A stretch of 64,000 nucleotides of DNA from Rhynchopus sp. YZ270_cl-10 (GCA_964035575.1 OZ037837.1:1116001-1180000), one strand, 5' to 3'; shown: positions 8,213 through 62,515, counted from the stretch's first letter. The notes: generated by a model not told the origin, from the sequence alone. Made by a program: numbers and translations.

Positions 8213-11200
8213 GTGGTCTGCTCTTGCTGAGGAGGAGGACCTTCCACGCAGAATGGACAAGAACGGAATCCGCTACTTCGAACACGAAGTTGCTTTGCAG
8301 GACACAGAACCATGGTCAGATATGCAAGAGGCAGACGTGTGCAGCACGAAGCGCAGAATGTACGAAGGCAGCTACGTTACAAAGCAGCAGTATCTGGACA
8401 CAGTGTGGCGCACAGCAGAGGTGGAGAAGCAGATACGCAGGCAGAACGCTGACGGCTACTTTGTCTTCAAACACGACTGGGATGAAGCCGTGGAGGGTGG
8501 TGCCTGGGAGGACGGGAAGAAGGAGACACTGCCGACGCTTGTGGAGCAGTTGCGGCAGCCCTCTCTCAACCTGTACGACCCAACGGTGTTTGGGAGCCGC
8601 ATTGAAACGGAGGAGAGCAGGGCCCAGCTGCACACGTGGTCGAGGCTGTGGGGTGCTGTGAACGCTGTGCTGGTGACAAGCACGGAGAAGGAGCGGGTGC
8701 TCTTCCGCAAGGTGGAGAATGTGGCGGACACTGTGCTGATCCACCACCTCCACCTGAAGCGTGGTGAGCTGTACTGCCAGCCCGACATCACTCTCTGGGA
8801 TGTGGAGCGCCGCTACAGAAACCGTGCTGTGAAGCACGAGAACGACAGCAGAAGCGAGACACAGGAAGCAAGGACGAAGGTGGACTTCACGTCTGACTTC
8901 AACGACAACTCAGGAAGACTGTGGGAGGCGTCAGAGCGCAGATGGACAGGGAGGGGTGGCGAGGAGGCTGCGTATGAAGGCGAGCTTTGCTACGAACATG
9001 AGTTCAAAGACAAATGCATGCAGGCACACAAGCAGGCACGCAAGGAAAGAGGGGAGGACGTGGGGTTTGATCTGAACACGTTACTCAGATGGGAAGATGC
9101 GAAGCCTGAGGACCCTTTCCTGACACACGTCCCTGGCGAGCAAGTTGAGGTGGAGACACGCAAGAACAGCAGCAGCACCATGACAACGATTCTCTTCAGC
9201 GCGCACGGGAAGATGCACGGCGAGTGTGTGGGGCTGCTGAGCGACGGACACGACTTCCTCCTCCCTGCGCTTGAGATGTTTATTGTGGAGGATGTTCAGG
9301 CACGTGGCACGTGCCTCCATGTCAGCCTCATCTCACGTGGCTCGCTGCTGCGCACGGACAAAGAGCTCCGTGCCTGGTGCTCTGGCATACAGCGGACTGG
9401 CCTGCGTTCTGTTTGGGGCAAGAACGGTGTCACGGATGAGTGTTTGCGTCCTGAGAGCAAGGCAGCAAAGGACGATACATTGGACAGGCAGAGCTTCTTG
9501 TGCACAGACGAGTGTGACGTGTTCTTCAGCCGCAAGTCTCAGATGCTCCACGGAACGGAACGGGAGGCAATGTTGCACGATCTGACGGACACTGTCAGAC
9601 CTGTGAATGACAGCGCATCTTTCAAGATGCAGGGTGCAAACGGACAGGTGAGGAACCATAGTGCGTGCACCCTGCCTTTGGCTGTGCCCACTACGTACCG
9701 CCCAGGGAAGACGTTTTTGAGTGGGTTGAACCGCAAGAAGCGTCCTGAAGGGGATCACACTGCAGAAGGCATGCCAAGAACACACGGCGACGAATTCCCA
9801 CTCATCCCGCACGTGGAACTCGCGGAGGATTGGGAGAAGGATATGGATGTGAACGATGTGGTCGCTGTTTCGGGAGCATCCATCCAGGCCTACCACGATG
9901 AGCACACAGACGAAGACGCGTTCTTCAAGACGATAGTCAAGCATGCGCGTGACACACCTGAGGAGTGCCCCCCGCCTGTGAGCGATGTGTACGGAGGGAA
10001 GGAGTTCCGCATCACTGTCGGGGAGGTGCAGCAGCTGCTGAAGACAACCACGATAGTCACGTCGCCGTCCCTCCCACTGCGTTTTGTGCAGTGTCTGATC
10101 GGCTCGTTCACGTCTGCGAAACAGCGTCTGCTGTTCTTCTACATATTCCGTGCAACGTCGCTGCTCAGCATCAGTATCAGCATCGAAGAAGATTGGGAAC
10201 GTGAGAAACGCATTATCAGAGATGACTTTCTAGCTGCAGTTGCAAGGGACGAAGAATACCTAGACTCTGAACGTAGTGCCCTTGACGCACGTGGCGCGAC
10301 GGAATCCTACCACCTCGCTCTGTTTCTGTTCAACCTTAACAAAACACCACTTGAGTATCTGGACGGCAAGTTTGATGACGACGGTGCAGAGCCTATTGAA
10401 GTCACCCGTGACAAGTTCACATCGTGGATGGCCACCGTACAGGCGGAACCTGCACAGTACGGCTTCACCTCAAAGGAACATGCGAGACAGACGTTGGCGA
10501 AGTCGCTGGTCGAACTGAGCACAGAAATGTGCGTCTCGCAGCAGGGCTTCTCCTTCACCTCCGGCACGGACGGTGAGCACAGCCAGCTCTGTGAGAAGAC
10601 GCACCACAGCATCGCCATCCTTGTGGCCACTGGGATGGACTTCTGTGAACGAAGACCCACCCTGCGTGAGGCACCAAAGTACTTCGTGAGAATAGCACGT
10701 GAAGGAACAAAGGCACACAAGGGCTGGACCTACTTCCAAGAAGGGAAGGAACGTGAATTTGTGGACCGTCTGAAGGTGCTGTACACATGCATCTTCGAAT
10801 CTGCAAGGAAACAGCGTGTGCGGAACATGTGCGCCATCCCTGTGTATCTTAATAATTATTCAGCTTGCCTTGGGTATGAGCTGAAACTTCAAGTTGCAGA
10901 AATGTACTTGCGTGCGCAGTTCGAACTCCTTGCAGAACAGGATTGGGGTTTTGAAAACGTATGCATGCTCTTTGTCTTGCTTTGTCTCACTTCTTGCTCT
11001 TTCATGTATGCGATACTGTCCTCCCCTCCTGCAACTAAGAAGGAGGACAGTGAAGCTGTCTGAATGGCGGCCACACTAAAGCAACAGATTATCAAGAACA
11101 AGAAAACAACAGCAGCAGAAAACCAAAACCCCATCTTTGTTTCAAAGACTTTATTGTGTTCCTCTTTCACATTACCTTTAATCACTGCACAACAGTACTG

Positions 11201-12121: not shown

Positions 12122-12260
12122 AGAGCCACACTTCACCGACAGGTAGAGGTGTGTGCGTTTCACCACAGGGTACGAAGTGATCAGCAAAGCTGAGGTGGCC
12201 AAGATAGTGATCTTGTTATTGGGTGTGTGCGTTTCACCACAACCTCTCCCTGTCTTTATT
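12122..12260 (+). repeat. Dispersed SINE-like short repeat; other copies ~22350-22446(-), ~30199-30260(+), ~56549-56625(+), ~57638-57717(-)
   Basis: Shared core GAGCCACACTTCACCGACAGGTAGAGGTGTGTGCGTTTCACCACAACCTCTCCC followed by a TTTATTG-rich tail. Confidence 0.75.
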
Positions 12261-12522
12261 GTCTTTATTGTCTTTATTGTCTTTATTGTCTTTATTGTCT
12301 TTATTGTCTTTATTGTCTTTATTGTCTTTATTGTCTTTATTGTCTTTATTGTCTTTATTGTCTTTATTGTCTTTATTGTCTTTATTGTCTTTATTGTCTT
12401 TATTGTCTTTATTGTCTTTATTGTCTTTATTGTCTTTATTGTCTTTATTGTCTTTATTGTCTTTATTGTCTTTATTGTCTTTATTGTCTTTATTGTCTTT
12501 ATTGTCTTTATTGTCTTTATTG
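12251..12522. repeat. (GTCTTTATT)n 9-mer array, about 30 units
   Basis: Direct reading. Confidence 0.98.
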
Positions 12523-13106: not shown

Positions 13107-14944
13107 AGTACAGTACAGTACAGTACAGTACAGTACAGTACAGTACAGTACAGTACAGTACAGTACAGTACAGTACAGTACAGTACAGTACAGTACAGTA
13201 CAGTACAGTACAGTACAGTACAGTACAGTACAGTACAGTACAGTACAGTACAGTACAGTACAGTACAGTACAGTACAGTACAGTACAGTACAGTACAGTA
13301 CAGTACAGTACAGTACAGTACAGTACAGTACAGTACAGTACAGTACAGTACAGTACAGTACAGTACAGTACAGTACAGTACAGTACAGTACAGTACAGTA
13401 CAGTACAGTACAGTACAGTACAGTACAGTACAGTACAGTACAGTACAGTACAGTACAGTACAGTACAGTACAGTACAGTACAGTACAGTACAGTACAGTA
13501 CAGTACAGTACAGTACAGTACAGTACAGTACAGTACAGTACAGTACAGTACAGTACAGTACAGTACAGTACAGTACAGTACAGTACAGTACAGTACAGTA
13601 CAGTACAGTACAGTACAGTACAGTACAGTACAGTACAGTACAGTACAGTACAGTACAGTACAGTACAGTACAGTACAGTACAGTACAGTACAGTACAGTA
13701 CAGTACAGTACAGTACAGTACAGTACAGTACAGTACAGTACAGTACAGTACAGTACAGTACAGTACAGTACAGTACAGTACAGTACAGTACAGTACAGTA
13801 CAGTACAGTACAGTACAGTACAGTACAGTACAGTACAGTACAGTACAGTACAGTACAGTACAGTACAGTACAGTACAGTACAGTACAGTACAGTACAGTA
13901 CAGTACAGTACAGTACAGTACAGTACAGTACAGTACAGTACAGTACAGTACAGTACAGTACAGTACAGTACAGTACAGTACAGTACAGTACAGTACAGTA
14001 CAGTACAGTACAGTACAGTACAGTACAGTACAGTACAGTACAGTACAGTACAGTACAGTACAGTACAGTACAGTACAGTACAGTACAGTACAGTACAGTA
14101 CAGTACAGTACAGTACAGTACAGTACAGTACAGTACAGTACAGTACAGTACAGTACAGTACAGTACAGTACAGTACAGTACAGTACAGTACAGTACAGTA
14201 CAGTACAGTACAGTACAGTACAGTACAGTACAGTACAGTACAGTACAGTACAGTACAGTACAGTACAGTACAGTACAGTACAGTACAGTACAGTACAGTA
14301 CAGTACAGTACAGTACAGTACAGTACAGTACAGTACAGTACAGTACAGTACAGTACAGTACAGTACAGTACAGTACAGTACAGTACAGTACAGTACAGTA
14401 CAGTACAGTACAGTACAGTACAGTACAGTACAGTACAGTACAGTACAGTACAGTACAGTACAGTACAGTACAGTACAGTACAGTACAGTACAGTACAGTA
14501 CAGTACAGTACAGTACAGTACAGTACAGTACAGTACAGTACAGTACAGTACAGTACAGTACAGTACAGTACAGTACAGTACAGTACAGTACAGTACAGTA
14601 CAGTACAGTACAGTACAGTACAGTACAGTACAGTACAGTACAGTACAGTACAGTACAGTACAGTACAGTACAGTACAGTACAGTACAGTACAGTACAGTA
14701 CAGTACAGTACAGTACAGTACAGTACAGTACAGTACAGTACAGTACAGTACAGTACAGTACAGTACAGTACAGTACAGTACAGTACAGTACAGTACAGTA
14801 CAGTACAGTACAGTACAGTACAGTACAGTACAGTACAGTACAGTACAGTACAGTACAGTACAGTACAGTACAGTACAGTACAGTACAGTACAGTACAGTA
14901 CAGTACAGTACAGTACAGTACAGTACAGTACAGTACAGTACAGT
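13107..14944. repeat. (CAGTA)n pentanucleotide array, about 367 units, no visible variants
   Basis: Direct reading. Confidence 0.98.
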
Positions 14945-16515: not shown

Positions 16516-16602
16516 GCCGTGATGATATCAACTGGTGTTGGTTGCAGACTTCAAATCTGTAGGCGGGGTGACCCGCAGCGGTTCGATTCCGCCTTCGCGG
16601 TG
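16516..16602 (+). tRNA. tRNA-Sec: tRNA-Sec (anticodon UCA), eukaryotic 9/4 type
   Basis: Acceptor GCCGTGATG/CTTCGCGGT plus G discriminator, anticodon arm TGCAGA-CTTCAAA-TCTGTA, long variable arm GCGGG/CCCGC, T arm GCGG-TTCGATT-CCGC, followed by TTTTT. Confidence 0.93.
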
Positions 16603-19775: not shown

Positions 19776-21628
19776 ATGGAACTGACCATCAAGGACTGCT
19801 CCAACAACTTGTACGTGATCGAGGTGGGTGTGGATGACACAACGGAGACGATGCGGCAGAAGGTGGCGACTGCAGCAGGGTTGGCTGAGGACAGCTTCCA
19901 CATGGGCTTCGGAGGGAAGCAGGAAGGAGAGGACATCACGCAGCTGAGTGCTGGAGACACAGTCGTGCTGACGAAGACGAAGAAGGTGTGGCGTACCGTC
20001 TGCAACGCAGCTCCGAAGGCATGTCTGAGGCGGAGCTCCGTGGTGGCGATAGAGCGAGAGGTACATGGATGGGGGAGTATTCTGCTGAGACGGCGTACCC
20101 CTCCACAGAAGTTAGGGGCAGGAGGGCACTACCATTCATCCAGCGGGCTGAACAGGAGACATCTGCGCATGCTCGCTACCGGCACCATGAGCACGTGCGT
20201 CCAGGGGACGCACCCGTGAAGGCACCTGAAGGAGCGGTTCCGATCTTCCAGTTTGCGATATGTGTGCTGCACCGGAAGACGAAGTGTGATGCCTGCTCGA
20301 AGAACGCCCAGGCAGACCTGATGCATTGCTGCTTTGCGCACCACTCCAACGACGACGGGTTACCGATCCGACACGAAGCATGCACTAAGCATAGACTCTC
20401 GAGGTGCGGGAACTGTGTGCAAGAGAAGAGTACGCTGGATCACTGCTGCCGCCGCCACCACGACACCTCGAAGGGGCGACAGACGACGCTGGGAGGCTTC
20501 TTCAAGAAGAAGCAGACGAAGCAGAAGGATGGGCACAGCAGGGGCGGTGATGGACTTATGTAACATCACCTCCACGATGTATTGTATCACCTATCTCGGA
20601 TAGGGGTGCATGCATCGAAAACGGGCCCCCACCAGCTGACGAAGACGAAGAAGTACGAAGCCCTTGCAGAGCTTCATGCGTTGGGTGAGACCGATATCAC
20701 TGCAGAGAGGCTGGAGACTGTGGAGGATCCTGTGGTGGCGTGTTTGCTTCTGCAGGCAGAGGTTGCGACTGTCATTCCGGATGGCTTCTTGGCAGAGGCA
20801 TCGTTAACAACACTTGATCTGAGTGCTGTTTCGTGTGTGACGGAAATAGGTGACTATTTCCTTGCTGGGTGCACAATGTTGACAAGTATCAACCTCTCTG
20901 GGTTGTGCAATGTGACGCGGATCGGTGAGAACTTTCTTCAAGGCTGCAAGAGCCTCACAGCATTAGACTTGACACCACTCAGCAGGATTGCACACATAGG
21001 TGATCGCTTTCTTTCCCACTGCAGGAGCCTCACAGAACTAAAGTTGTCAGCACTCCGCAGAATTACGCAAATAGGCGACAACTTTCTTGAGGAGTGCAGC
21101 GGCCTCACAGAACTAGACTTGCCACCACTCAGCAATGTTACACAAATTTACGAATACTTTCTTGCCGGCTGCCGGGGCCTGACAGCATTAAACTTGTCAC
21201 CACTATGCAATGTTACACGCATAGGCGGTTGCTTTCTTCTCGGCTGCAGGAGCCTCTCAGAACTAGACTTGACACCACTCACCAATGTTGCGCAAATAGA
21301 CCGAAGATTTCTTGCCTTCTGCACCAGCCTCACAGAACTAGACTTATCACCACTCAGCAGGATTGCACACATAGGCGAATATTTTCTTTCCCGCTGCACC
21401 AGCCTCACAGTGCTTGACTTGTCCCCACTTGGCGCAGTCATGGACATGGGTCCACTACCTGCTCACGAGTACACTTCGTTGAAGAGCATCCACCTCTCCG
21501 GCTGCAGCAGCGCTGTGTCGAGTCGAGTACAGGAAAGCAACCTGAAGGAGCTTGTTGATGCACGTCCGAAACGTAGCAGAGACGAATCTCCCGAGCAGTG
21601 CCGCAAGCGACGGAGAGGCTCAGAATGA
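19776..21628 (+). CDS. UBL-LRR-NLS protein copy A (9 LRR units), interrupted by a 650-bp insertion or intron at 19986-20635
   Basis: First 70 codons match the family UBL; the LRR part resumes after duplicated LTKTKK codons; 394 aa if precisely spliced. Confidence 0.8.
19986..20635 (+). mobile_element. 650-bp insertion with GT...CAG ends and 18-19 bp target-site duplication
   Basis: (G)CTGACGAAGACGAAGAAG at 19967-19985 and 20635-20653; absent from five paralogs. Confidence 0.9.
20021..20563 (+). CDS. Insert-encoded Cys/His-repeat protein with C-terminal PIP-box motif (possibly 5' truncated)
   Basis: Two C-x2-H-x4-C-x2-C-x8/9-HCC-x2-HH units and QTTLGGFF followed by a Lys-rich tail; frame open from the insert's 5' end. 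Confidence 0.6.
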   Translation: MSEAELRGGDRARGTWMGEYSAETAYPSTEVRGRRALPFIQRAEQETSAHARYRHHEHVRPGDAPVKAPEGAVPIFQFAICVLHRKTKCDACSKNAQADLMHCCFAHHSNDDGLPIRHEACTKHRLSRCGNCVQEKSTLDHCCRRHHDTSKGRQTTLGGFFKKKQTKQKDGHSRGGDGLM

Positions 21629-23073: not shown

Positions 23074-25227
23074 ATGGAACTGACCATCAAGGACTGCTCC
23101 AACAACTTGTACGTGATCGAGGTGGGTGTGGATGACACAACGGAGACGATGCGGCAGAAGGTGGCGACTGCAGCAGGGTTGGCTGAGGACAGCTTCCACA
23201 TGGGCTTCGGAGGGAAGCAGGAAGGAGAGGACATCACGCAGCTGAGTGCTGGAGACACAGTCGTGCTGACGAAGACGAAGAAGTACAAAGCCATTGCAGA
23301 GCTTCATAAGTTGGGTGAGACCGATATCACTGCAGAGAGGCTGGAGACTGTGGAGGATCCTGTGGTGGCGTGTTTGCTTCTGCAGGCGGAGGTTGCGACT
23401 GTCATTCCGAATCGCTTCTTAGCAGACACATCGTTAACAACACTTGATCTCAGTGCTGTTTCGTGTGTGACGGAAATTCGTGACAATTTCCTTGCTGGGT
23501 GCGCAACGTTGACAAGTATCAACCTCTCTGGGTTGTGCAATGTGACGCGGATTGGTGAAGGCTTTCTTTCCAGTACAGGCCTCACAGCATTAGACTTGAC
23601 ACCACTCAGCAGGATTACGCAAATAGATGGTTCGTTTCTTGTCGGCTGCAGCGGCCTCACAGAACTAGACTTGTCGCCACTCAGCAGGATTGCACACATA
23701 GGTGATGGCTTTCTTGCCCGCTGCACGGGCCTCACAGAACTAGACTTGACACCACTCAGCAGGATTGCGCAAATCGACGAAAGCTTTCTTGAAGGCTGCA
23801 GCGGCCTCACAGCATTAGACTTGACACCACTCAGCAGGATTACGCAAATAGATGGTTCGTTTCTTGTCGGCTGCAGCGGCCTCACAGAACTAGATTTGTT
23901 GTCACTCAGCAGGATTGCACACATAGGTGATGGCTTTCTTGCCCGCTGCACGGGCCTCACAGAACTAGACTTGACACCACTCAGCAGGATTGCGCAAATC
24001 GACGAAAGCTTTCTTGAAGGCTGCAGCGGCCTCACAGCATTAGACTTATCACCATTCAGTAGGATTGCACACATAGGCGGTTGGTTTCTTCTCGGCTGCA
24101 GCAGTCTCACAGAACTAGACTTGACACCACTCAGCAGGATTGCGCAAATAGGCGAAAGCTTTCTTTCCGGCACAGGCCTCACAGAGATAGACTTGGCACC
24201 ACTCAGCAGGATTGTAAAAATAGATGGTTGCTTTCTTCTCGGCTGCAGGAGCCTCACAAAATTAAACTTGACACCACTCAGCAGGGTTGCGCAAATAGGC
24301 GAAAGGTTTCTTGAGGAGTGCAGCAGCCTCACAGAACTAGACTTGACACCACTCAGCAATGTCACAGACATAGGCGATTGCTTTCTTAACGACTGCAAGA
24401 GCCTCACAGTGCTGAACTTGGCACCACTCAGCAAGGTTACGATAGTTGGTAGTTTCTTTCTCTACGGCTGCAGCGGCCTCACAGAACTAGACTTGACATC
24501 GCTCGCCAATCTTACACAACTACGTGAATACTTTCTTGCCACCTGCACAGGCCTCACAGCATTAGATTTGTCGCCACTCACCAGGATTACACAACTTGGC
24601 GAGAACTTTCTTCAAGGCTGCAAGAGCCTCACAGTATTAGACTTGTCGCCACTCAGCAGGATTGCACACATAGGCGAAAGCTTTCTTGCCAACTGCTGGG
24701 GCCTCAGAGAACTAAACTTGTCGTCACTCAGCAATCTTTCAGACATTAGTGGTTGGTTTCTTGAGGACTGCAGGAGCCTCACAGAACTAAACTTGACACC
24801 ACTCAGCAATGTTACAGACATAGCTGACTGTTTTCTTGACGGCTGCACCAGCCTCACAGAACTAGACTTATCGCCACTCGAAAATATTGTGCAAATAGGA
24901 GAGTGCTTTCTCGACAACTGCAGCGGCCTCACAGAACTAGACTTGACGCCGCTGTGCATGGTTTATAAAATCGGTGATGGCTTTCTCGCCAACTGCACCA
25001 GCCTCACAGTGCTTGACTTATCCCCACTCGGCATAGTCATGCACATGGGTGAGCTACATGCTGACGAGTACACTTCGTTGAAGAGCATCCACCTCTCCGG
25101 CTGCAGCAGCGCTGTGTCGAGTCGAGTACAGGAAAGCAACCTGAAGGAGCTTGTTGATGCACGTCCGAAACGTAGCAGAGACGAATCTCCCGAGCAGTGC
25201 CGCAAGCGACGGAGAGGCTCAGAATGA
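23074..25227 (+). CDS. UBL-LRR-NLS protein copy B (22 LRR units, 717 aa)
   Basis: Intact ORF; UBL-like N-terminus, 25-aa repeats LTELDLxPLSxxxxIGxxFLxxCxx, C-terminal KRSR...RKRRR. Confidence 0.93.
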   Translation: MELTIKDCSNNLYVIEVGVDDTTETMRQKVATAAGLAEDSFHMGFGGKQEGEDITQLSAGDTVVLTKTKKYKAIAELHKLGETDITAERLETVEDPVVACLLLQAEVATVIPNRFLADTSLTTLDLSAVSCVTEIRDNFLAGCATLTSINLSGLCNVTRIGEGFLSSTGLTALDLTPLSRITQIDGSFLVGCSGLTELDLSPLSRIAHIGDGFLARCTGLTELDLTPLSRIAQIDESFLEGCSGLTALDLTPLSRITQIDGSFLVGCSGLTELDLLSLSRIAHIGDGFLARCTGLTELDLTPLSRIAQIDESFLEGCSGLTALDLSPFSRIAHIGGWFLLGCSSLTELDLTPLSRIAQIGESFLSGTGLTEIDLAPLSRIVKIDGCFLLGCRSLTKLNLTPLSRVAQIGERFLEECSSLTELDLTPLSNVTDIGDCFLNDCKSLTVLNLAPLSKVTIVGSFFLYGCSGLTELDLTSLANLTQLREYFLATCTGLTALDLSPLTRITQLGENFLQGCKSLTVLDLSPLSRIAHIGESFLANCWGLRELNLSSLSNLSDISGWFLEDCRSLTELNLTPLSNVTDIADCFLDGCTSLTELDLSPLENIVQIGECFLDNCSGLTELDLTPLCMVYKIGDGFLANCTSLTVLDLSPLGIVMHMGELHADEYTSLKSIHLSGCSSAVSSRVQESNLKELVDARPKRSRDESPEQCRKRRRGSE

Positions 25228-26549
25228 TAGAAGGCCGGTGCGTTTGCAACCGGCAAGAGCACAGTCAGCCGCATCTGCATCGATGCGTCAGAGGCAACCC
25301 GCAGTACCATGGTCCGAAGCTTCTGTGAACTGTTGTTACGTTTTTGCTCTCGTTTGTCGGTCTTGCCACGAGAAGGGGTAATAGGGTAATAGGGGAATAG
25401 GGTCGGGGTGGGTACGACATTGGGGGATTCACGCATTCTTTGTTTCGATTTCTTTTCCTGAAGAAGGGTTTTAGTTGGGGAGGGGAGGTGGGGTGTTTGG
25501 GTAAGTAATGTGTGAAGAACAGCGAAGCCAAACATTCTTGTAAGAGGAGTGTACGTCTTGTGTTCACATCTAAAAGCAAAACTGTGAGGGAGACATACAA
25601 GTGTATCGTGTGGAAGAGAGGTAGGGAGTGGGGGTGTTCTGTTAAAAGGTGCCGTGTTACGACCTGGCAACTTCCAGCAGTAGGTTAAGTAATCTTTCTT
25701 GTAAATTGTTGGATCATTATCTCCTCAGTGCATGAATGCCCCACGTGACTGGACACTTTTGTGTTTGTCATGTGGAGCTGTGGTTGCTCTTTCACGACTT
25801 TTTTCCTGTTCCTGGGTACCTGGACCTGGACCTGGGTATCTGGGTATCGGTACCTGGGTACCTGGGTACCAAGAAGGCAAAAAATCAAGAATCCGGATTA
25901 TGCGACAATGTGGATTATTAATCCACATTGTCGTAATCCACATTTTTAGAGTCCACATTGTCGTTTCCCCTTTTTTTTTTATATAGTAAACTGCTTATCA
26001 ACTTAAACCCGCAAACCCAGACCAGAATATTGAACGAGGATAGTGGTGTGGGAAGTATCCAAGTGGTTACTACACCTTTTGGGTCTGAACTGTCCTTTTT
26101 GCAAACGTTTTGGGTCTCTTAAATCTGGGGTGGAACAGGGATATGGTGCTTTTCGTGCATATGGGTGCACCATGTTCTTTGCTAAGAGAACGAAACAAAA
26201 TGAAATAGAAGCAACGCAAAGGGGACTGTTCAACAAGTATACTCCACGAACGTTTTCCCCTCCATCCCTCATATTTTGATACTAACTCGCCGTGTGCGCT
26301 GTGCTCCACACAGCACAACGTAACGTCCACGAAACACGGTGCTGGCATTTGTGCGGGAAGGGGAGGCACAAAGAACGCTGTCACTTCTGTGGTGATGAAT
26401 GGTGCAGAAGCTTGGCAACGATTACCAGCCTCTCACTCACCTTTCCTGTGTGCTGCAGTCTTGAACGCACACTCTGTTTCCATCCCATGCCACCCACCCA
26501 ACCCCTTCCAGACACCCCTGCACCCTCCCACCTCTTCGAAACACACAAC

Positions 26550-28772
26550 ATGGGTTCTGACACGCAGCCCACCGCACCACAGATGCCGAGCTGTGAGAAC
26601 TGTGGCGTGCCTGCACAGCTGCAGTGCGGGATGTGCGTGGAGCTGTTCTTCTGCGACAAGCCTGCGTGCTATGACGCTTGCCACACAAGGCCACGTGACC
26701 GTGAGGCACATCGCGCTTCTGTGACTGCGTTCGGGACATCGTCGAAGTGTGCACTTCACCCAGGCCAAGAGCTGTGCCTCGTCTGTGAAGACCCTGCGTG
26801 TGGAGACGCGTTGATCTGCACTCGCTGTGACAAGTGCGACACACATGTGGGACACAAGACAGTTTACATCACGGACTACATGAAACGCCAGCGTGACACC
26901 CTCTGCTCGCACGTGGCAGACCTGACAACACAGCGGACTGCTGCAAAGGAGGAGTGCCGTGTGCTTGAGGCACTCCCTCCCACAGAGGACAGGTACAAAG
27001 ACCTTCTCCTGCAGACACACGTCGGGCACCTCGTGATGCGTGAGGATGTGTCGCGCAGCGAAGTCATGTGTGAGGAGGAGGTGGTACGGAGCTGCCTCGC
27101 ACAAACACTCAGTCGTGAAGGGGAGGTGTGTGCGCTGAAGACGTTTGTTGCGAAGGCAGGACGCGCGATTGCTGAGTGCGAGGCGGTGTGCCAGCTTGGG
27201 GACGACCAGGTGTTGCGTGCGGTCACAGAGTCGCAGGCCATTATGCGGAACATCAACAGCATGGCAGCGAGTGGAGACCGCCACCGCCTTGTGGGTGCTG
27301 CACACCCACACGCAACGTTTTCCCTGAAGCTGCCTGTTTCGAACGTGCACGACGCCCTTGCCCAGATGTTGGCAAGGTTGCCACTTTTTGGTGATGGTTT
27401 CCCGCCATCCGCAGCCTCAAGCTCGTCAGGTGCAGCAGGGTTCCCGTCGTTTGCCCCGAGCAGCAGTGCTGCTGGTGCAGCGTCCTCAAGCGCCGCAGCA
27501 ACTGGTGGTTTCCCATCGTTTGCAGGAAGCTCGTCCAGCGCAACAGGGGGCTTCCCGTCGTTCGGCCCCAGTAGTGGAAACACATCAACAGCGACAGCAA
27601 CAACAGCAGCCTCCTCAAGCGCTGCAGCAGGTGGTTTCTCCTTCACTGCGAATAGGTCCGCATCAGCGAAAGGCGGCTTCCCTTCGTTTGCAGCATCAAC
27701 AGCAGCAGCAGCCTCCAGCACGACAGGGGGGTTCCCTTCCTTCTCTGTCTCTAGTTCCTCTGCACCTGCAGGCGGAGGGTTCCCTGCATTTGCCCCTACC
27801 TCCAGCATAGCAGCAGGCTTCCCTTCGTTTGCAGCATCAACAGCAGCCTCATCCAGCACGACAGGGGGTTTGTATGCCTTCTCTGCCTCTAGTTCATATG
27901 CACCTGCAGGCGGAGGGTTCCCTTCGTTCGGTAGCACTGCCCCTGCTGCAGCTGAACCGGCTGGGTTCAGCTTCGGAGCAACCTCAGCAGCGGCAACACC
28001 GTACTCAGCTACCCCCGCAGCAGCCGCATCAACGGGGTTCAGCTTCGCCCCTCCCACAACGCAGGTCAACACGCAGAGGAGGAAGCAGGATGCCATTGCA
28101 GCACTTCGTGTGTTGGGTGAGACAACACTTACAGCGGAAAGGTTGAAGCAGGTGAATGATCAGCGCAGTGATCCGAAGGTGGCTTGCTTGCTCCTGCAGG
28201 CAGGAGTTGCGACTGCGATTCCAGACAACTTCTTCTCGAGAACCAGAGTGACGTGCATTGATCTCAGTCATGCGTCTGCTGTGACTGTGATTGGGGACGA
28301 ATTTCTTCATGACTGCACAGCTTTGACCAAAGTTGACTTCAGTGGATTGCAAGCTGTCACCTCAATTGGGTACAGGTTCCTGCGTGGGTGCACAGCATTG
28401 TCGACAGTTGATCTGAGTGCATTCCAAGCTGTCACCTCGATCAGGTACTCGTTCCTCAAGGGGTGCACATCCTTGACCAAAGTTGACCTCAGTCCTTTAC
28501 GAGCGGTCACTGCGATTGACGAAGCGTTCCTGGCTGAGTGCACATCAGTGTCAACAGTTGACTTGAGTGGATTCCAAGCAGTCATCAGGATTGGGGACTG
28601 GTTCCTCAGCGGGTGCACATCATTGTCCACAGTTGACTTGAGTGCATTGCAAGCTGTCACCTCGACTGACAGGTACTTCCTCGGTGGGTGCACATCATTG
28701 AAGACCTTGCACGGAAAGGAAAAGTGCAGCAATGCTGTACTCAGAGTGCTACCACAACACCTACGACAGTGA
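26550..28772 (+). CDS. B-box1/B-box2/coiled-coil + GFPSF-repeat low-complexity region + LRR protein (alternative start 26487)
   Basis: CENC...CGMC...C...C...H...H and CALH...C...C...C..C...H..H zinc motifs, helical region, Ala/Ser/Gly region with GFPSF repeats, 25-aa LRRs. Confidence 0.88.
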   Translation: MGSDTQPTAPQMPSCENCGVPAQLQCGMCVELFFCDKPACYDACHTRPRDREAHRASVTAFGTSSKCALHPGQELCLVCEDPACGDALICTRCDKCDTHVGHKTVYITDYMKRQRDTLCSHVADLTTQRTAAKEECRVLEALPPTEDRYKDLLLQTHVGHLVMREDVSRSEVMCEEEVVRSCLAQTLSREGEVCALKTFVAKAGRAIAECEAVCQLGDDQVLRAVTESQAIMRNINSMAASGDRHRLVGAAHPHATFSLKLPVSNVHDALAQMLARLPLFGDGFPPSAASSSSGAAGFPSFAPSSSAAGAASSSAAATGGFPSFAGSSSSATGGFPSFGPSSGNTSTATATTAASSSAAAGGFSFTANRSASAKGGFPSFAASTAAAASSTTGGFPSFSVSSSSAPAGGGFPAFAPTSSIAAGFPSFAASTAASSSTTGGLYAFSASSSYAPAGGGFPSFGSTAPAAAEPAGFSFGATSAAATPYSATPAAAASTGFSFAPPTTQVNTQRRKQDAIAALRVLGETTLTAERLKQVNDQRSDPKVACLLLQAGVATAIPDNFFSRTRVTCIDLSHASAVTVIGDEFLHDCTALTKVDFSGLQAVTSIGYRFLRGCTALSTVDLSAFQAVTSIRYSFLKGCTSLTKVDLSPLRAVTAIDEAFLAECTSVSTVDLSGFQAVIRIGDWFLSGCTSLSTVDLSALQAVTSTDRYFLGGCTSLKTLHGKEKCSNAVLRVLPQHLRQ

Positions 28773-30082: not shown

Positions 30083-31341
30083 CTCCAACCACGACCCTTC
30101 AGATGACCAAGCACGAGGCTTGCGTATTCATGTTTATTTAGGCGTATGTACAAGAGACATATCGCCAGTGTTCTTTATTTTGTATTTTATTTGTTTGGAG
30201 AGGTGTGTGCGTTTCACCACAACCTCCCTTTTGTCTTCATTGTTGTATTGTTTGCGGGGTGATGGGTAAACATAATAAAAGGGAAAGTAGGGTTTCAATT
30301 ATATTTGTTTTTGCTTCTCGGTGCCTACCGTACACAGAGACACTTTGCACTAATGTAAGCGGTTAAAAGTCAGTTTTCTTTTATGGTTGGCCGAAGATCT
30401 TAGTGACGAACACGAAAAATCACAGTTAAAAAAAAAAAAAAACTTTGTTCCGTTTTTGGAGCGAAGTGATTGTCGACACAACAAAAAAAAACGATTGTAG
30501 CGAAAACAACAGAGCGAGGATGATCCCAGGTCGGCTGGGAAAAGAATCATTTCGTACTATGATCGTTGGTGAACCATGTTCTCTGCCAACAAAATAAAAT
30601 AAAACGAAAGATGGAAGCAACGCAAAGGGTACTGCACAACAAGTATACTTCACAAACGTTTTCCCCTCCATCCCTCATATTTTGATACTAACTCGCCGTG
30701 TGCGCTGTGCTCCACCCATACCCACACAGCACAACGTAACGTCCACGAAACACGGTGCTGGCATTTGCACGGGATGGTGGTGGTGGCTTGGCTGCGCTTG
30801 GGCGTTCTTTTGGGTTTGGGGCACGGTGCACTGGGTGGGCTGGTGGGCGGGATCGCAGGAGGGAGACGTCGTTGTCGGAGGACACAGGTGCAGGGCACGT
30901 TGTGTGGTAGTGCAGCACGACTGGTTCTGGCTCGATGTGCAGTGTGTTGTCGTTGTGGTGATGCTGGGGTGGAACAGGGACGTGCCCAGCCGTGGGGTGC
31001 TTTCGTGCATTTGTCTGGCACCTCGGCTTGCCGTGGTTGCAGCACGAGAGCACCTTTGGCGTTCTTGCTGGGGTGGGTGGGGTGGGGTGCCTATCTTGGG
31101 TGGTGTTTTTATTCAGTGTGTGGGTTCACTTTCGCGACATGGCACTGTGCCGTCTGTGCCCCTCAGGCAGGTGGCAGCTGGTGGGTGTTCTTCTCCCAGG
31201 TCGTCTAAGCAGTCACCTACCATCGTGCGTCTTGCGGCTTCGTGCGGTGTCGTTGCACGGCTCTGCCTGCCAAGGGGTTTCTACGTCGTTGCCCCAACCC
31301 CACAACCCCACCACACAACAGAGCAACACAAAAGAAGACAA

Positions 31342-42355: not shown

Positions 42356-42774
42356 CGTACGCAGTTTTTTTTTGTTCCTTACACGTACTGTTATTGGAAA
42401 CTCGAATAATAAAGCCAACGTTTAGTCGCCTGATACTGACTATGTTCTCCCTCCCTTTAAAAATTACTTTCGCCAAAATTCAGATCTCACACACTGTTTT
42501 TTTTTGGATGCGTTCAACGAAAATAATCTTTCCCCATTTCTAGCCGAGAAATCAAGATCCGTTGGCAGACTGTAATAGTCGAGTATAGTGGAAGCGAACA
42601 ACAAACAACCTAAATTTTTCCTCTTCCCGTTTTTATCCTTTTGAGCAACAAGCAAAGAGTAACGAGTCTCTCGAGCATTTTGTTTCTTCTTTTTTTAAAG
42701 CTGGCCGTTCTTGACGTTCTTTGTCACACTACACCACCACACCACACCACACCCGGCAGGCTCCATACACAGTC

Positions 42775-44244
42775 ATGCAGAACATGCGACAGTTCTTCCT
42801 GGGGGCAGCTGTGTCTGTAGCATTTATCTTCGTCTGGATCTCCCTGGCACCATGCCGTCAGCTACCACCGCCACCGCCTGCTTGCGATCGCATCAGTACT
42901 CCCGATCATGCACCACCATTGCGCCATCCACACACACCCGAGAAGGCGAAGCCGAAGAAGGAAGCTCCGAGGCCCTCCGTTGCGCCCGAGTTTGCAGGGC
43001 AGTATGAGTTCTACATGACAGACTCGCGGTTTGCGGAGCTGCGTGACCCGAAGTGGTTGATTGAAAAGGATATCGTTGCCTGGCCGACGTGGGTCCTCAC
43101 TGCACTTAACAACTACGCATACTGCAAGAAGCACGGATACGACATCACACTATGGGCGACCCCTAGCCCAGCCGTTTCCAACTACAGCAACCGCGGCTGG
43201 GGCAATGCCCTTGCCGCACAGTACATCAGCTCGCGCTCCCAACAAGGTGGCTGGCCTGACCGGGACTGGCTGATCTACCTCGACTCTGACAGCTATGTAA
43301 GACGAGTTGACACTCGGGTGGAGGAATTCTTGTCAGCACACCCGATGTACACACCCCTGGAGGCAGAGGACGCACAGTCGAGCCTCTTGCTGAAGGAGGA
43401 GGGGAACACACCAAAGGCACTGAAAAAGGCACGCAAGGTGGTGAACGCAACCGAAGAAGTGTTCGCCCTCCTGGCTGCAGAGGTGCCTCTCCCTGTAGTG
43501 CTTCAAGGCATTGCACCGGATTCGTGGGTCAACACTGGCGTGATTTTTTTTAACCTTCGTCACAAACTGTCAAACTTCCTATTAACAGAGTGGACCCGCT
43601 CGGTCACCTCAGGGATATGTGACGGTAGATTCCGATTTGATAGGATTGCTGAACAGACCTGCCTGAATACGATGTTCTTCGCGAAAAACGAACAGTTTGG
43701 GTATATGAAGCACATCGCCCTGCAAGAAGACCCCGCGAGGTTCAATTCACCTGTGGGTGACTACGTTCGACACACCTGGGGGGGCAACAGCGGTGGCTTC
43801 ACGTTTCTTCTCTTCGGAAGCGAGCTGATCAGTATGGGGTACAGATCGACGCGGCAGATCCACAACCTGCTCCGGGAGATGGTGGCGTCTGGAGCTGTCC
43901 GCCCACTGCCGATGGTGCTCGGGGAGAAGGCGCCTGCGTACATTGTGAACGATGACAACTGGGACATCCAGACCGAGGAGATGGCGCAGCAAGCGGACAT
44001 CCTTGTCCGCAGCAGCTGGCAGCCTGCCTTCTCACGCAGCCCCGCCATCGGTACCTTCCTTCCTGTCGTTGCTGCTTCATCCAGCGAATGTCTTGTCACC
44101 GCACACCGTGATCACACCTGCTCAGCTATCGTATGGAGGGTACGGGACAATATGCGAGGTGATTGCTTCTGCTATTCTGACCTACAGAGCCCCGAGCTCG
44201 TCACCGAGCCCTTCACCGTGACGTGGACCCCGCGGGTTCTTTAG
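42775..44244 (+). CDS. Type II membrane glycosyltransferase, GT34 (GMA12/MNN10)-like
   Basis: N-terminal TM and Pro-rich stem; NNYAYCKKHGY, DWLIYLDSD (DxD), NTGVIFF and EQTCL motifs. Confidence 0.82.
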   Translation: MQNMRQFFLGAAVSVAFIFVWISLAPCRQLPPPPPACDRISTPDHAPPLRHPHTPEKAKPKKEAPRPSVAPEFAGQYEFYMTDSRFAELRDPKWLIEKDIVAWPTWVLTALNNYAYCKKHGYDITLWATPSPAVSNYSNRGWGNALAAQYISSRSQQGGWPDRDWLIYLDSDSYVRRVDTRVEEFLSAHPMYTPLEAEDAQSSLLLKEEGNTPKALKKARKVVNATEEVFALLAAEVPLPVVLQGIAPDSWVNTGVIFFNLRHKLSNFLLTEWTRSVTSGICDGRFRFDRIAEQTCLNTMFFAKNEQFGYMKHIALQEDPARFNSPVGDYVRHTWGGNSGGFTFLLFGSELISMGYRSTRQIHNLLREMVASGAVRPLPMVLGEKAPAYIVNDDNWDIQTEEMAQQADILVRSSWQPAFSRSPAIGTFLPVVAASSSECLVTAHRDHTCSAIVWRVRDNMRGDCFCYSDLQSPELVTEPFTVTWTPRVL

Positions 44245-47868: not shown

Positions 47869-49608
47869 ATGAAGCGTTCCTCCGTGAGTGAGTCCCCCAC
47901 CACAAAGAAGTCCCGGGTAGACAGCCCTGCACCCTCCCACCTCTCCGAAACACACAACATGGTGCCTGACACGCAGCCACAGATGCCGAGCTGTGAGAAC
48001 TGTGGCGTGCCTGCACAGCTGCAGTGCGGGATGTGCGTGGAGCTGTTCTTCTGCGACAAGCCTGCATGCTATGACGCTTGCCACACAAGGCCACGTGACC
48101 GTGAGGCACATCGCGCTTCTGTGACTGCGTTCGGGACATCGTCGAAGTGTGCACATCACCCAGGCCAAGAGCTGTCCCTCGTCTGTGAAGACCCTGCGTG
48201 TGGAGACGCGTTGATCTGCATGCATTGTGCTTACTTCGGACATACGGGACACAAGACAGTTGACATCACAAACTACATGAAACGCCAGTGCAACATCCTC
48301 TGCTCACACGTGTCAGACCTGACAACTCAGCGGACTGCTGCAAAGGAGAAGTGCCGTGTGCTTGAGGCACTCCCACCCACGGAGGACAGGTACAAAGACC
48401 TTCTCCTGCAGACAAACGTCGAGCACCTTGTGATGCGTGAGGATGTGTCGCGCAACGAAGTCATGTGTGAGGAGGAGTTGGCACGGAGCTTCCTCACACA
48501 GGCACTCAGTCGTGAAGGGGAGGTGTGTGCACTGAAGACGTTTGTTGCGAAGGCAGGACACGTGATTGCTGAGTGCGAGGCGGTGTGCCAGCTTGGGGAC
48601 GACCAGGTGTTGCGTGCGGTCACAGAGTCGCAGGTTGTTGTGCGAAGCATCAACAGCATGGCAGCGAGTGGAGACCGCCACCGCCTTGTGGGTGCTGCAC
48701 ACCCACACACAACGTTTTCCCTGAAGCTGCCTGTTTCGAACGTGCACGACGCCCTTGCCCAGATGTCTGCGATTGTTGTGCCTGTCCTTGTGCAGGGGTT
48801 GGATGGAGTGGAACACGAGATTGAGGTGAGTGTGGATGACACGGGCAGGGACTTGCGTCGGAAGGTGGCGTCTGCAGTGGGGTTGCGTGAAGACTGCTTC
48901 GACATGACTTTCGGAGATGAAGTGATTGCAGAAGGAGAGGACGTGGTGCAGCTGAGGGGTCACAGGGTTGTTGTAACGCAGGTCAGCACACAGCAGAGAA
49001 AGCAGGATGCTATTGCAGCACTAGTTGCGTTCGGTGAGACAACACTTACAGCTGAAAGGTTGAAGCAGGTGACTGATGAAGGCAATCTGACGGTGGCTTG
49101 CTTGCTCCTGCAGGCAGGAGCTGCGACTGCGATTCCAGACAACTTCTTCTCGAAAACTGCAGTGCCGTGGATGGATCTCAGTCATGCGTCTGCTGTGACT
49201 GTGATTGGGAACGAGGTACTTTATGACTGCACAGCTTTGACGAACCTCGACCTGAGTGGCTTGCAATCTGTCACCAGGATTGGGTACAGGTTCCTCCGTG
49301 GGTGCACAGCATTGTCGACAGTTGACTTGAGTGGATTGCAAGCTGTCACCAGCATTGGGAACGCGTTCCTCTGGGGGTGCACATCATTGTCGACAGTTGA
49401 TTTGAGTGGATTACAACGTGTCACCTCGATTGGGGACTGGTTCCTCTGCAAGTGCACATCATTGTTGACAGTTGATTTGAGTGGATTCCAAGGTGTCACC
49501 AGTGTTGGACACTACTTCCTCAAGGATTGCACATCATTGAAGACCTTGCACGGAAAGGACAAGTGCAGCAATGCTGTACTCATGAAGCTACCACAACACT
49601 TACGCTAG
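47869..49608 (+). CDS. B-box1/B-box2/coiled-coil + UBL + LRR protein (579 aa)
   Basis: N-terminal KR...KKSR, two B-box-like motifs, UBL-like VLVQGLDGVEHEIEVSVDDTGRDLRRKVA..., LRRs. Confidence 0.9.
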   Translation: MKRSSVSESPTTKKSRVDSPAPSHLSETHNMVPDTQPQMPSCENCGVPAQLQCGMCVELFFCDKPACYDACHTRPRDREAHRASVTAFGTSSKCAHHPGQELSLVCEDPACGDALICMHCAYFGHTGHKTVDITNYMKRQCNILCSHVSDLTTQRTAAKEKCRVLEALPPTEDRYKDLLLQTNVEHLVMREDVSRNEVMCEEELARSFLTQALSREGEVCALKTFVAKAGHVIAECEAVCQLGDDQVLRAVTESQVVVRSINSMAASGDRHRLVGAAHPHTTFSLKLPVSNVHDALAQMSAIVVPVLVQGLDGVEHEIEVSVDDTGRDLRRKVASAVGLREDCFDMTFGDEVIAEGEDVVQLRGHRVVVTQVSTQQRKQDAIAALVAFGETTLTAERLKQVTDEGNLTVACLLLQAGAATAIPDNFFSKTAVPWMDLSHASAVTVIGNEVLYDCTALTNLDLSGLQSVTRIGYRFLRGCTALSTVDLSGLQAVTSIGNAFLWGCTSLSTVDLSGLQRVTSIGDWFLCKCTSLLTVDLSGFQGVTSVGHYFLKDCTSLKTLHGKDKCSNAVLMKLPQHLR

Positions 49609-52291: not shown

Positions 52292-52378
52292 GCCGTGATG
52301 ATATCAACTGGTGTTGGTTGCAGACTTCAAATCTGTAGGCGGGGTGACCCGCAGCGGTTCGATTCCGCCTTCGCGGTG
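52292..52378 (+). tRNA. tRNA-Sec: tRNA-Sec (UCA), second copy
   Basis: Same 87-nt sequence as 16516-16602, followed by CTTTTCTTTT. Confidence 0.92.
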
Positions 52379-53802: not shown

Positions 53803-55743
53803 ATGAAGCGTTCCTCCGTGAGTGAGTCCCCCACCACAAAGAAGTCCCGGGTGGACGGTCCTGCACCCTCCCACCTCTCCGAAACACACAACATGGCGCC
53901 TGACACGCAGCCCACCGCACCACAGATGCAGAGCTGTGAGAACTGTGGCGTGCCTGCACAGCTGCAGTGCGGGATCTGCACGGAGCTGTTCTTCTGCGAC
54001 AAGCCTGCGTGCTATGAAGTGTTCCACTCATCTTTATCAAGGCCACGTGACCGTGAGGCACATCGCGCTTCTGTGACTGCGTTCGGGACGTCGTCGAAGT
54101 GTGCACATCATCCAGGCCAAGAGCTGTGCGTCGTCTGTGAAGACCCTGCGTGTGGAGACGCGTTGATCTGCATGCGTTGTGCTTACTTCGGACACACGGG
54201 ACACAAGACAGTCGACATCACGGACTACATGAAACGCCAGTGCAACATCCTCCACTCACACGTGTCAGACCTGACAACACAGCGGACTGCTGCAAAGGAG
54301 AAGTGCCGTGTGCTTGAGGCACTCCCACCCACAGAGGACAGATACAAAGACCTTCTCCTGCAGACAAACGTCGGGCACTTCGTGATGCGTGAGGATGTGT
54401 CGCGCAACGAAGTCGTGTGTGAGGAGGAGTTGGCACGGAGCTTCCTCACACAGGCACTCAGTCGTGAAGGGGAGGTGTGTGCACTGAAGACGTTTGTTGC
54501 GAAAGCAGGACACATGATTGCTGAGTGCGAGGCGGTGTGCCAGCTTGGGGACGACCAGGTGTTGCGTGCGGTTACAGAGTCGCAGGTTGTTGTGCGGAGC
54601 ATCAACAACGTGGCAGCGAGTGGAGACCGCCACCGTCTTGTGGGTGCTGCAGGCCGACACGCAACGTTTTCCCTGGATCTTCCTGTTTCACACGTGCACA
54701 ACTCCCTTACCCAGTTGTCGGCGCTTGTTGTGCCTGTCCTTGTGCAGGGGTTGGATGGAGTGGAACACGAGATTGAGGTGAGTGTGTATGACACGGGCAG
54801 GTACCTGCTTCGGAAGGTGGCGTCTGTAGTGGGGTTGCGTGAAGGCTGCTTCGACATAACTTTCAGAGGTGCAGTGATTGCAGAAGGAGAGGACGTGGTG
54901 CAGCTGAGGGGTCACAGGGTTGTTGTAACGCTGACCGAGACAGAGAGGAGGAAGCAGGATGCCATTGCAGCACTTCGTGCGTTGGGTGAGACAACACTTA
55001 CATCACAAAGGTTGGGGCAGGTGACTGATCCGAAGGTGGCTTGCTTGCTCCTGCAGGCAGGAGTTGCGACTGCGATTCCAGACAACTTCTTCTCGAGTAC
55101 TGCAGTGACGTGCATTGATCTCAGTCATGCGTCTGCTGTGACTGCGATTGGGATGCAGGTACTTTATGGCTGCAGATCTTTGACGAAACTCGACCTGAGT
55201 GGATTACAACGTGTCACCTTGATTGGGCACTCGTTCCTCCACGGGTGCACAGCATTGTCTACAGTTGATCTGAGTGGATTACAAGCTGTCAACTCGCTTG
55301 GCAGTACGTTCCTCGCAGGGTGCACATCATTGTCGACACTTGATCTGAGTGGATTACAAGCTGTCACCTCGATTGGTGACTCGTTCCTCAAGGATTGCAC
55401 ATCATTGTCAACGATTGACCTGAGTGGATTGCAAGCTGTCAACTCGCTTGGCAGTACGTTCCTCGCAGGGTGCACATCATTGTCGACAGTTGATTTGAGT
55501 GGATTACAAGCTGTCACCTCGATTGGTGGCTCGTTCCTCCACGGGTGCACATCATTGTTGACAGTTGATTTGAGTGGATTACAACGTGTCACCAGTGTTG
55601 GGCACTGTCAAGGGTATCACCATCAAGGGTACTATCAAAGTGGGCACTATTTCCTCGGTGGGTGCACATCATTGAAGACCTTGCACGGAAAGGACAAGTG
55701 CAGCAATGCTGTACTCAGCGTGCTACCACAACACTTACGCTAG
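53803..55743 (+). CDS. B-box1/B-box2/coiled-coil + UBL + LRR protein (646 aa)
   Basis: Paralog of 47869-49608 with extra LRR units and a 14-aa insertion near the C-terminus. Confidence 0.9.
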   Translation: MKRSSVSESPTTKKSRVDGPAPSHLSETHNMAPDTQPTAPQMQSCENCGVPAQLQCGICTELFFCDKPACYEVFHSSLSRPRDREAHRASVTAFGTSSKCAHHPGQELCVVCEDPACGDALICMRCAYFGHTGHKTVDITDYMKRQCNILHSHVSDLTTQRTAAKEKCRVLEALPPTEDRYKDLLLQTNVGHFVMREDVSRNEVVCEEELARSFLTQALSREGEVCALKTFVAKAGHMIAECEAVCQLGDDQVLRAVTESQVVVRSINNVAASGDRHRLVGAAGRHATFSLDLPVSHVHNSLTQLSALVVPVLVQGLDGVEHEIEVSVYDTGRYLLRKVASVVGLREGCFDITFRGAVIAEGEDVVQLRGHRVVVTLTETERRKQDAIAALRALGETTLTSQRLGQVTDPKVACLLLQAGVATAIPDNFFSSTAVTCIDLSHASAVTAIGMQVLYGCRSLTKLDLSGLQRVTLIGHSFLHGCTALSTVDLSGLQAVNSLGSTFLAGCTSLSTLDLSGLQAVTSIGDSFLKDCTSLSTIDLSGLQAVNSLGSTFLAGCTSLSTVDLSGLQAVTSIGGSFLHGCTSLLTVDLSGLQRVTSVGHCQGYHHQGYYQSGHYFLGGCTSLKTLHGKDKCSNAVLSVLPQHLR

Positions 55744-61485: not shown

Positions 61486-62515
61486 ATGGAACTGACCATC
61501 AAGGACTGCTCCAACAACTTGTACGTGATCGAGGTGGGTGTGGATGACACAACGGAGACGATGCGGCAGAAGGTGGCGACTGCAGCAGGGTTGGCTGAGG
61601 ACAGCTTCCACATGGGCTTCGGAGGGAAGCAGGAAGGAGAGGACATCACGCAGCTGAGTGCTGGAGACACAGTAATGCTGACGAAGACGAAGAAGTACGA
61701 AGCCCTTGCAGAGCTTCATGCGTTGGGTGAGACCGATATCACTGCAGAGAGGCTGGAGACTGTGGAGGATCCTGTGGTGGCGTGTTTGCTTCTGCAGGCG
61801 GAGGTTGCGACTGTCATTCCGAATAGCTTCTTGGCACACACATCGTTAACAACACTTGATCTCAGTGCTGTTTCGTGTGTGACGGAAATAAGTTACTATT
61901 TTCTTGGCGGGTGTTCAACGTTGACAAGTGTCAACCTCTGGGTTGTGCAATGTGAAGCGGATTGGTGAAGGCTTTCTTTCCGGCACAGGCCTCACAGCAT
62001 TAGACTTGACACCACTCAGCAGTATTGCACACATAGGTGATTGGTTTCTCTCCGAATGCAAGAGCCTCATAGCACTAAACATGTCACCACTTCGCAATGT
62101 TACGATAGTTGGTGATTGGTTTCTCGGGGACTGCAGGAGCCTCACAGAGCTAGTCTTGACACCACTCAGCAATGTTACACAAATAGGCGAAAGCTTTCTT
62201 GCTAAATGCACAGGCCTCACAGAGCTAGACTTGACACCACTCAGCAATGTTACACAAATAGACGAAGGCTTTCTTGCCAACTGCACAGGACTCACAGTGC
62301 TTGACTTATCCCCACTCGGCGCAGTCATGCACATGGGTGTGCTACATGCTGACGAGTACACTTCGTTGAAGAGCATCCACCTCTCCGGCTGCAGCAGCGC
62401 TGTGTCGAGTCGAGTACAGGAAAGCAACCTGAAGGAGCTTGTTGATGCACGTCCGAAACGTAGCAGAGACGAATCTCCCGAGCAGTGCCGCAAGCGACGG
62501 AGAGGCTCAGAATGA
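61486..62515 (+). pseudogene. UBL-LRR-NLS copy H (7 LRR units) with a 2-bp frameshift
   Basis: AACCTCTGGG near 61933-61942 vs AACCTCTCTGGG in paralogs; both halves otherwise intact (real mutation or sequencing error). Confidence 0.8.

Follow-up and report, generated by a model that had tools for sequence, protein, structure and literature searches.

TRIM and TRIM-like proteins, such as TRIM5alpha and the RING-less TRIM29, TRIM44, and TRIM66 (B1-B2-CC arrangement), carry two B-boxes and a coiled coil together with an exchangeable C-terminal module. Plant NLRs with integrated domains come from multigene LRR clusters in which fragments of unrelated host genes are acquired. In TRIMCyp, which is described as a natural fusion, a segment of the host gene for cyclophilin A has been captured onto the B-box/coiled-coil scaffold of TRIM5. 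The engineered Trim-NUP153C joins TRIM effector domains to a Phe-repeat region, and such a fusion of TRIM5 with the FG region of NUP153 is reported to restrict HIV-1 (PMC3795039).

Here we describe a gene of Rhynchopus sp. YZ270_cl-10, gene A, in which a UBL has been replaced in frame by a Phe-rich repeat segment. It lies in a 64,000-nucleotide stretch of DNA (OZ037837.1:1116001-1180000), referred to as the window. Its family shares with TRIMs the two B-boxes, the coiled coil, and a C-terminal module open to exchange but differs from them in being RING-less, in forming an intronless tandem cluster, and in carrying a UBL and a BspA-type LRR at the C terminus, which are not among the human TRIM C-terminal domains given in the table legend of PMC2533329. 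Compared with TRIMCyp, the cargo of gene A is a disordered repeat, an internal domain was replaced with the LRR retained, the joints bear no marks of retroposition, and the case is known here from sequence alone. Whereas Trim-NUP153C unites a true FG domain with TRIM5 effector domains, the gene A insert is FG-poor, and its protein has no RING. Unlike the plant NLRs, gene A has neither NB-ARC nor TIR, the captured piece is of low complexity, and a decoy role is only putative. We favor, with a probability of about 0.58, the explanation that ectopic repair captured a Phe-repeat segment into a dispensable UBL slot, where it has been tolerated as a flexible linker. The locus would then be a clean, datable case of a gene being built, as donor and recipient are both present and only ~7 to 10% diverged. 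Our literature searches returned no description of this B-box/coiled-coil/UBL/LRR family or of such a capture among the matches listed, and the terms leucine-rich, B-box, and nucleoporin are absent from the main text of the published Diplonema genome.

The gene family and its UBL slot

Intronless BspA-type LRR genes form a tandem cluster in the window. Eight are UBL-LRR copies, of which three are broken, and another three are longer and have a zinc-finger module at the N terminus. The longer copies are gene A (26487..28772, +), paralog B (47869..49608, +), which encodes B-boxes, a coiled coil, a UBL (48767-48975), and an LRR, and paralog C (53803..55743, +), which has the architecture of paralog B. 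The chimeric gene A is one unbroken ORF of 761 amino acids from the ATG at 26487, or 740 from the ATG at 26550; the former start yields an N terminus identical to that of P0003, one of the family proteins (P0003 to P0085) that are predicted models with possible errors. Elsewhere in the cluster, a UBL-LRR copy (61427-62515, +) has a frame break near 61960, and an unrelated ORF (42715-44244, +) weakly matches Glyco_transf_34 (E = 0.004). Two UBL-LRR copies are split by an element of ~650 bp (about 19986-20634 and 58560-59206, +) flanked by a 19-bp target-site duplication; this is probably a mobile element that inserted prior to duplication of the UBL-LRR copy.

The first zinc finger of gene A is B-box1-like (26592..26705, +), with its Cys/His pattern intact; the homologs P0004, P0009, P0018, and P0022 weakly match ANCHR-like_BBOX (E = 0.009 to 0.02). 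B-box2 follows (26748..26855, +), with ligands conserved in the alignment and a zf-B_box match in paralog B (E = 1e-3) and in homologs (down to E = 3e-5). The N terminus of gene A alone has no Pfam B-box match, and the assignment comes from the paralogs, the profile, and the fold. A profile of 16 family sequences matches the B-box2/coiled coil of TRIM5 (5va4; E = 1.4e-8), and when the N-terminal 273 residues are modeled with AlphaFold (mean pLDDT, 74), the five top Foldseek matches are TRIM5 B-box2/coiled-coil chimeras (best E = 6e-4). The predicted coiled-coil helices (26868..27272, +; residues 107 to 241) come directly after B-box2. At the C terminus, a helical linker and the BspA-type LRR (28059..28772, +) match Pfam LRR_5 (E = 7.7e-17; 61.8 bits versus a cut-off of 27.7), with pLDDT mostly >90.

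No RING family match was found in gene A, its paralogs, or 15 homologs, and for this reason we call the proteins TRIM-like rather than strict TRIMs (PMC2533329). Judged by profile and predicted fold, the host gene family is TRIM-like, with two B-boxes, a coiled coil, and a BspA LRR. One member, P0021, has B-boxes, a coiled coil, and a SPRY domain (E = 2e-8), which is the TRIM5 layout minus the RING. With its B-boxes and coiled coil followed by UBL plus LRR, SPRY, or low-complexity tails, the family resembles a TRIM-style repertoire distinct from the RING-bearing type of animals.

Outside the swap, gene A corresponds to paralog B, as the initial annotation had proposed. Both anchor strings occur exactly twice in the window (27351 and 28059; 48748 and 48976), and identity is 92% over the left flank (26510-27369) and 82% over the right (28058-28625). 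At the swapped slot, where both paralogs B and C have the UBL segment, 209 bp (48767-48975 in paralog B) are replaced by 689 bp (27370..28058, +), in agreement with the ~207 and ~690 bp first reported; the difference of 480 bp is 160 codons, and the frame is kept. The in-frame swap in gene A is real. The 209-bp segment of paralog B matches Pfam ubiquitin (E = 7e-4) and FERM_N (E = 5e-4), both under curated cut-offs.

The insert encodes 230 residues (among them 60 Ala, 55 Ser, 31 Gly, 25 Phe, 22 Pro, and 21 Thr), arranged as GFPSF/GFSF-type units in Ala/Ser/Thr spacers, and is predicted to be disordered. An earlier count of about 13 motifs is borne out when degenerate forms are admitted: seven GFPSF, one GFPAF, and three GFSF make 11 strict motifs, to which GFPPS and GLYAF are added. 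In 20,000 shuffles of the insert residues, the mean number of strict motifs is 0.12 and the highest is 3. The internal duplication previously reported was recovered at 27675..27923 (+), with copies at 27675-27785 and 27816-27923 that are 88% identical over 111 columns; one motif of the second copy is GLYAF. The insert lies in sense orientation, in the donor's frame at both joints; read in the remaining two sense frames, it contains 1 and 7 stops and lacks the motifs.

The slot varies in other members of the family as well. Among 150 representative hits, 15 have the N-terminal module, eight with a UBL match and seven without, and four of these seven are LRR proteins. Alternative tails include SPRY (P0021), a GFGGF tail (P0018), NPF (P0067), and a Pro-rich tail (P0016). 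DNA contigs of two sequencing runs, X2 and X5, join 27359 to 28085 in frame, a net loss of 699 bp relative to the window. On the evidence of these sequences, the UBL slot is dispensable and often exchanged in other family members. The tails of P0018 (GFGGF-rich, with 8 FG, and unrelated to the insert), P0067, and P0016 are possible further captures, with the reservation that all three are predicted models.

Gene A was also said to lack the N-terminal basic motif of its paralogs. The motif is indeed absent in comparison with paralogs B and C, yet its absence is the common state in the family, shared by all 10 family hits with an intact N terminus. We rejected a tie between this loss and the capture, given those 10 homologs and given that P0003 has the same start and no insert. 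Basic stretches, which we take to be of the bipartite NLS type, are C-terminal in UBL-LRR copies (25130-25227 and others) and N-terminal in paralogs B (47869-47920) and C (53803-53855), and gene A has neither; much of the family may be nuclear.

A second locus and the route of insertion

The right junction of the insert is bridged by contigs of three of four public runs (X1, X2, and X5; three studies) with 43 to 45 letters and zero differences, where run X1 may be the source sample of the window. At the left junction, only 30 (X1) and 25 (X2) flanking letters are reached, just short of the 31-letter threshold. Contigs from three studies are letter-identical to the window over most of the insert. 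An assembly artifact as the source of the swap is ruled out by these public-run contigs, which match the insert and bridge its right junction. The window-type insert varies at 27526, 27610, and 27639 (three sites in X2 and two in X3), which is strain variation; all of these variants are non-synonymous, and one converts GFSF to GFPF.

Contigs were aligned to the insert alone at 80% likeness, and three of four runs were informative (X2, X3, and X5; two studies); run X7 (share, 0.09), with one short low-complexity contig on the insert, was excluded. The runs contain two versions of the insert, the window type and a second type that is ~90% identical to it (26 to 29 other letters plus 12 gap letters over ~300 bp). 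Depths of the second and window types are 85 to 90 versus 79 to 115 in X3, 107 to 137 versus 128 to 154 in X5, and 408 to 679 versus 395 to 632 in X2. In all three runs, the second version matches 27389..27932 (+) and belongs to a longer GFPSF array; its contigs depart from the window at 27389, 27798, and 27925, with loose ends that are in frame and repeat-like. It does not extend into the B-box flank. At 27389, it is preceded by another contig (3071 bp, unbranched in X3), the final 30 loose letters of which translate in frame as another repeat spacer. All four rearrangement joints inside the array of the second locus keep the frame, and the gaps listed between this locus and the insert all sum to multiples of three.

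The N-terminal module of the family has a summed depth about a hundredfold greater, and contigs are fragmented there. The unbranched 3-kb upstream contig thus indicates that no high-copy B-box module lies at that position, which speaks against a further family copy as the second locus. We infer that it is a gene in its own right, of low copy (depth not being copy number) and with a longer GFPSF array, a condensed piece of which gene A holds. Capture from a donor locus is well supported by these contigs, and the transfer was presumably from the second locus to gene A, a direction for which only the 30-letter ends of the donor are seen. Local repeat expansion as the origin of the insert is excluded by the second locus, with its longer array that leaves the window in frame at both ends.

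The joints of the insert show no target-site duplication and no poly(A), and 209 bp of the original gene were lost at the insertion site. At the left joint, 19 nt of filler (27370..27388, +) are unmatched by the second locus and contain a 7-nt inverted copy of the left flank, a weak, post hoc match (shuffle P of ~0.03). Taken together, these features make DNA break repair with template switching a likelier route than retroposition; the latter, the TRIMCyp type, was rejected on the clean joints and the lost 209 bp. Repair of a break would have copied a 689-bp stretch from the second locus, possibly a nucleoporin gene, over the UBL and in frame. The 3' part of the insert (27948..28058, +), with GFSFG and GFSFA, has no second copy at 80% likeness, and its depth comes from the window-type contig only; second-locus contigs cover neither the initial 19 nt nor the final 110 nt of the insert.

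With the insert as query, no donor protein was found among 7,993 (128 to 408 amino acids; E of 1), 7,986 (407 to 1,295 amino acids; E of 1e-3), and 7,967 (1,296 to 3,700 amino acids; E of 10) scored candidates; in a phmmer control, the insert scores itself strongly. These searches weakly suggest that the protein collection probably lacks both gene A and the donor, or that they were crowded out. The insert has no match in PDB sequences, Pfam, or the ESM Atlas, paralog B has none in the ESM Atlas, and none of the 150 representative family hits matches the insert. In JGI metagenomes, the exact insert pattern was found 0 times, and none of 601 pattern matches was confirmed.

Nucleoporin likeness and selection on the insert

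The insert shares predicted disorder, low charge, Phe enrichment, small-residue spacers, and Gly-flanked Phe with FG nucleoporins, including those with FxFG or FSFG repeats. Charged residues (DERK) make up 2.2% of it (Asp/Glu, 0.9%), Phe 10.9% (versus 3.1% in the rest of the gene A protein, a difference of ~3.5-fold), and FILVM 13.5%. For comparison, Nup98 FG domains have a median of 2.5% charged residues, 13 to 17% FILVM, and a median length of 549 (PMC4283134), more than twice the 230 residues of the insert. Over residues 298 to 522 of 761, pLDDT is <50 and no secondary structure is predicted, in a region without real alignment depth. The insert has 12 GF dipeptides, and its motifs are spaced 13 to 28 residues apart. 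A small residue follows all 11 strict motifs (six A, three G, one S, and one T), and two of the seven GFPSF are followed by Gly. In trypanosome FG Nups, likewise, Phe is bordered by Gly or other small residues, and FSFG is dominant in TbNup64/75/98 (PMC2742445); PSFG is a recognized minor FG type (PMC10591098).

The dominant form of the motif is nevertheless GF-P-S-F-[A/G/S], not FG. Only 4 FG dipeptides occur in the 230 residues (1.7 per 100, against a shuffle mean of 3.4 dipeptides; P = 0.44), with 1 FxFG, whereas the ten Nup98 domains tabulated in PMC4283134 have 6.3 to 10.3 FG per 100 amino acids. In further contrast to FG nucleoporins, there is no pore anchor, and the host protein is not a nucleoporin. 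We conclude that the insert is nucleoporin-like in composition, with too few FG motifs to be classed as an FG domain. The initial annotation had described it as a captured nucleoporin-like segment. Capture from another locus, one with a second, longer in-frame array, has held up; a nucleoporin as donor is only plausible, as the composition fits, whereas FG density does not exceed chance and the searches yielded no donor protein, and we put its chances at about even. Among the matches listed for GFPSF in literature searches, none was on nucleoporins by title. If the donor is a nucleoporin, then GFPSF[A/G] would extend the set of non-canonical pore repeats.

Over 103 codons, the insert and the second locus differ by 12 synonymous and 10 non-synonymous changes (omega of ~0.37; P = 0.007), a low value to which the donor alone could give rise; the repeat units compared may be out of register. 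With an even split of the changes and constraint on the donor alone, a neutral copy should carry 13.5 non-synonymous changes, and the 10 observed do not reject neutrality. In 16 of the 22 changes, the window copy carries A/T where the other copy has G/C, and 2 run the other way (P = 0.001). With the window copy taken as derived, C>T falls on 5/34 synonymous and 0/71 non-synonymous sites (P = 0.003, post hoc and with small numbers), and G>A is alike in both site classes (7/75 and 2/21). The C>T pattern would then be consistent with a translated spacer from which bulky hydrophobic substitutions have been removed. The opposite polarity, with the second copy derived, gives an omega of 0.82 and requires non-synonymous A>G to run ahead of synonymous (7/26 versus 2/33; P = 0.035), which would be odd for a constrained gene. 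None of the 10 non-synonymous changes is in a motif (P = 0.07); this sparing would fit a role beyond that of a passive linker. Compared with the second locus, one motif is a residue short (3-nt gap behind 27637), and another has decayed to GLYAF.

The private changes of gene A in its N-terminal module number 8 synonymous and 29 non-synonymous over 184 and 623 sites (omega of ~1) and are not AT-biased (13 versus 20). With this value and three broken UBL-LRR copies in the window, the family looks loosely constrained. In-frame GT..AG pairs able to remove most of the insert were listed (47 in all); the strongest-looking acceptor, at 28064, is common to the UBL paralogs and is in frame only with the donor sites 27336 and 27345 of the shared flank. 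Upstream of several family copies (26280-26314, about 30660-30700, and about 47020-47060, +), a pyrimidine tract is followed by TACTAAC and a downstream CAG, an element that resembles a 3' or trans-splice acceptor.

Alternative explanations and other features of the window

Should the captured segment be expressed, it would probably form a long, uncharged, flexible linker between the predicted coiled-coil scaffold and the LRR. The reach of the LRR would be lengthened and any UBL-dependent step lost; the functional gain would likely be small, and the Phe motifs may add some weak multivalent stickiness. Translation of the insert is presumed, as is its role as a linker. Retargeting to the pore or to condensates, as proposed in the initial annotation, gained no support from any of our analyses, and since other members have lost or exchanged the UBL slot, the data are equally well explained by a tolerated insertion. 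Retargeting would require that the insert be a working FG-like domain, binding transport receptors or FG-binding invader proteins, with relocation to the pore or action as a decoy on the TRIM-like scaffold as the outcome. Charge, Phe, and FILVM content that match Nup98 FG domains, the spacing of the motifs and the small residues that follow them, the PSFG and FSFG types cited above, the precedents of TRIMCyp and of the TRIM5-NUP153 fusion with its reported activity, the 8 FG in the tail of P0018, and motifs spared by non-synonymous change all speak for it. An FG density at shuffle level, a length below half the Nup98 median, one shortened and one decayed motif, the missing RING as effector, and the failure to find a donor nucleoporin speak against it, and we consider it quite unlikely. 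If the chimera does bind FG-readers, it would be a natural counterpart of the engineered TRIM-NUP153 restriction factors.

Gene A might also be silent or in decay within a birth-and-death cluster, or its insert might be spliced out; either way, the repeat would never appear in a protein. Broken family copies, the omega of ~1 in the N-terminal module, and the presence of in-frame GT..AG pairs are compatible with this, as is the absence of every tested gene A start from the protein collection, in which paralog B is present. We consider this reading unlikely. Against it stand an ORF open over 761 codons with intact zinc ligands, an insert in sense and in the donor's frame at both joints, gaps relative to the second locus that are all multiples of three, and AT-ward changes that avoid bulky hydrophobic substitutions; the acceptor at 28064, moreover, is shared with UBL paralogs and restricted to two in-frame donor sites. 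FxxF motifs occur in trafficking accessory proteins and J-domain chaperones, and those that bind adaptors are acidic. The dominant unit of the insert, GF-P-S-F, is FxxF and not FG, and a relative (P0067) has an NPF-bearing tail, such that the donor could be some other disordered protein from which the chimera gained a specific partner (e.g., a trafficking adaptor or chaperone). With Asp/Glu at 0.9% of the insert, against the acidic adaptor-binding motifs, and without a Pfam, PDB, or Atlas match, we regard this as very unlikely. Most speculative, and in our view hardly probable, is a microbial eukaryote whose TRIM-like immune repertoire draws on pieces of its own nuclear-pore genes for use as baits: the gene A tract would catch FG-binding capsids or symbiont effectors, the P0018 tail would be a second independent capture, and the donor would be a class of nucleoporin with GFPSF[A/G] in place of FG.

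Several features of the window lie apart from gene A. An ORF of ~950 codons (8213-11063, +) after an N gap has no Pfam match. Satellite arrays with 38-, 9-, and 5-bp units occur at 2282-8012, 12251-12522, and 13107-14944. Within the LRR cluster, two tRNA-Sec genes (16516-16601 and 52292-52377, +; 73.9 bits each) lie in a 717-bp duplicated segment whose copies are 97% identical. The tRNA-Sec genes, the satellites, and the branch-point-like TACTAAC..CAG elements point to a eukaryotic origin of the window.
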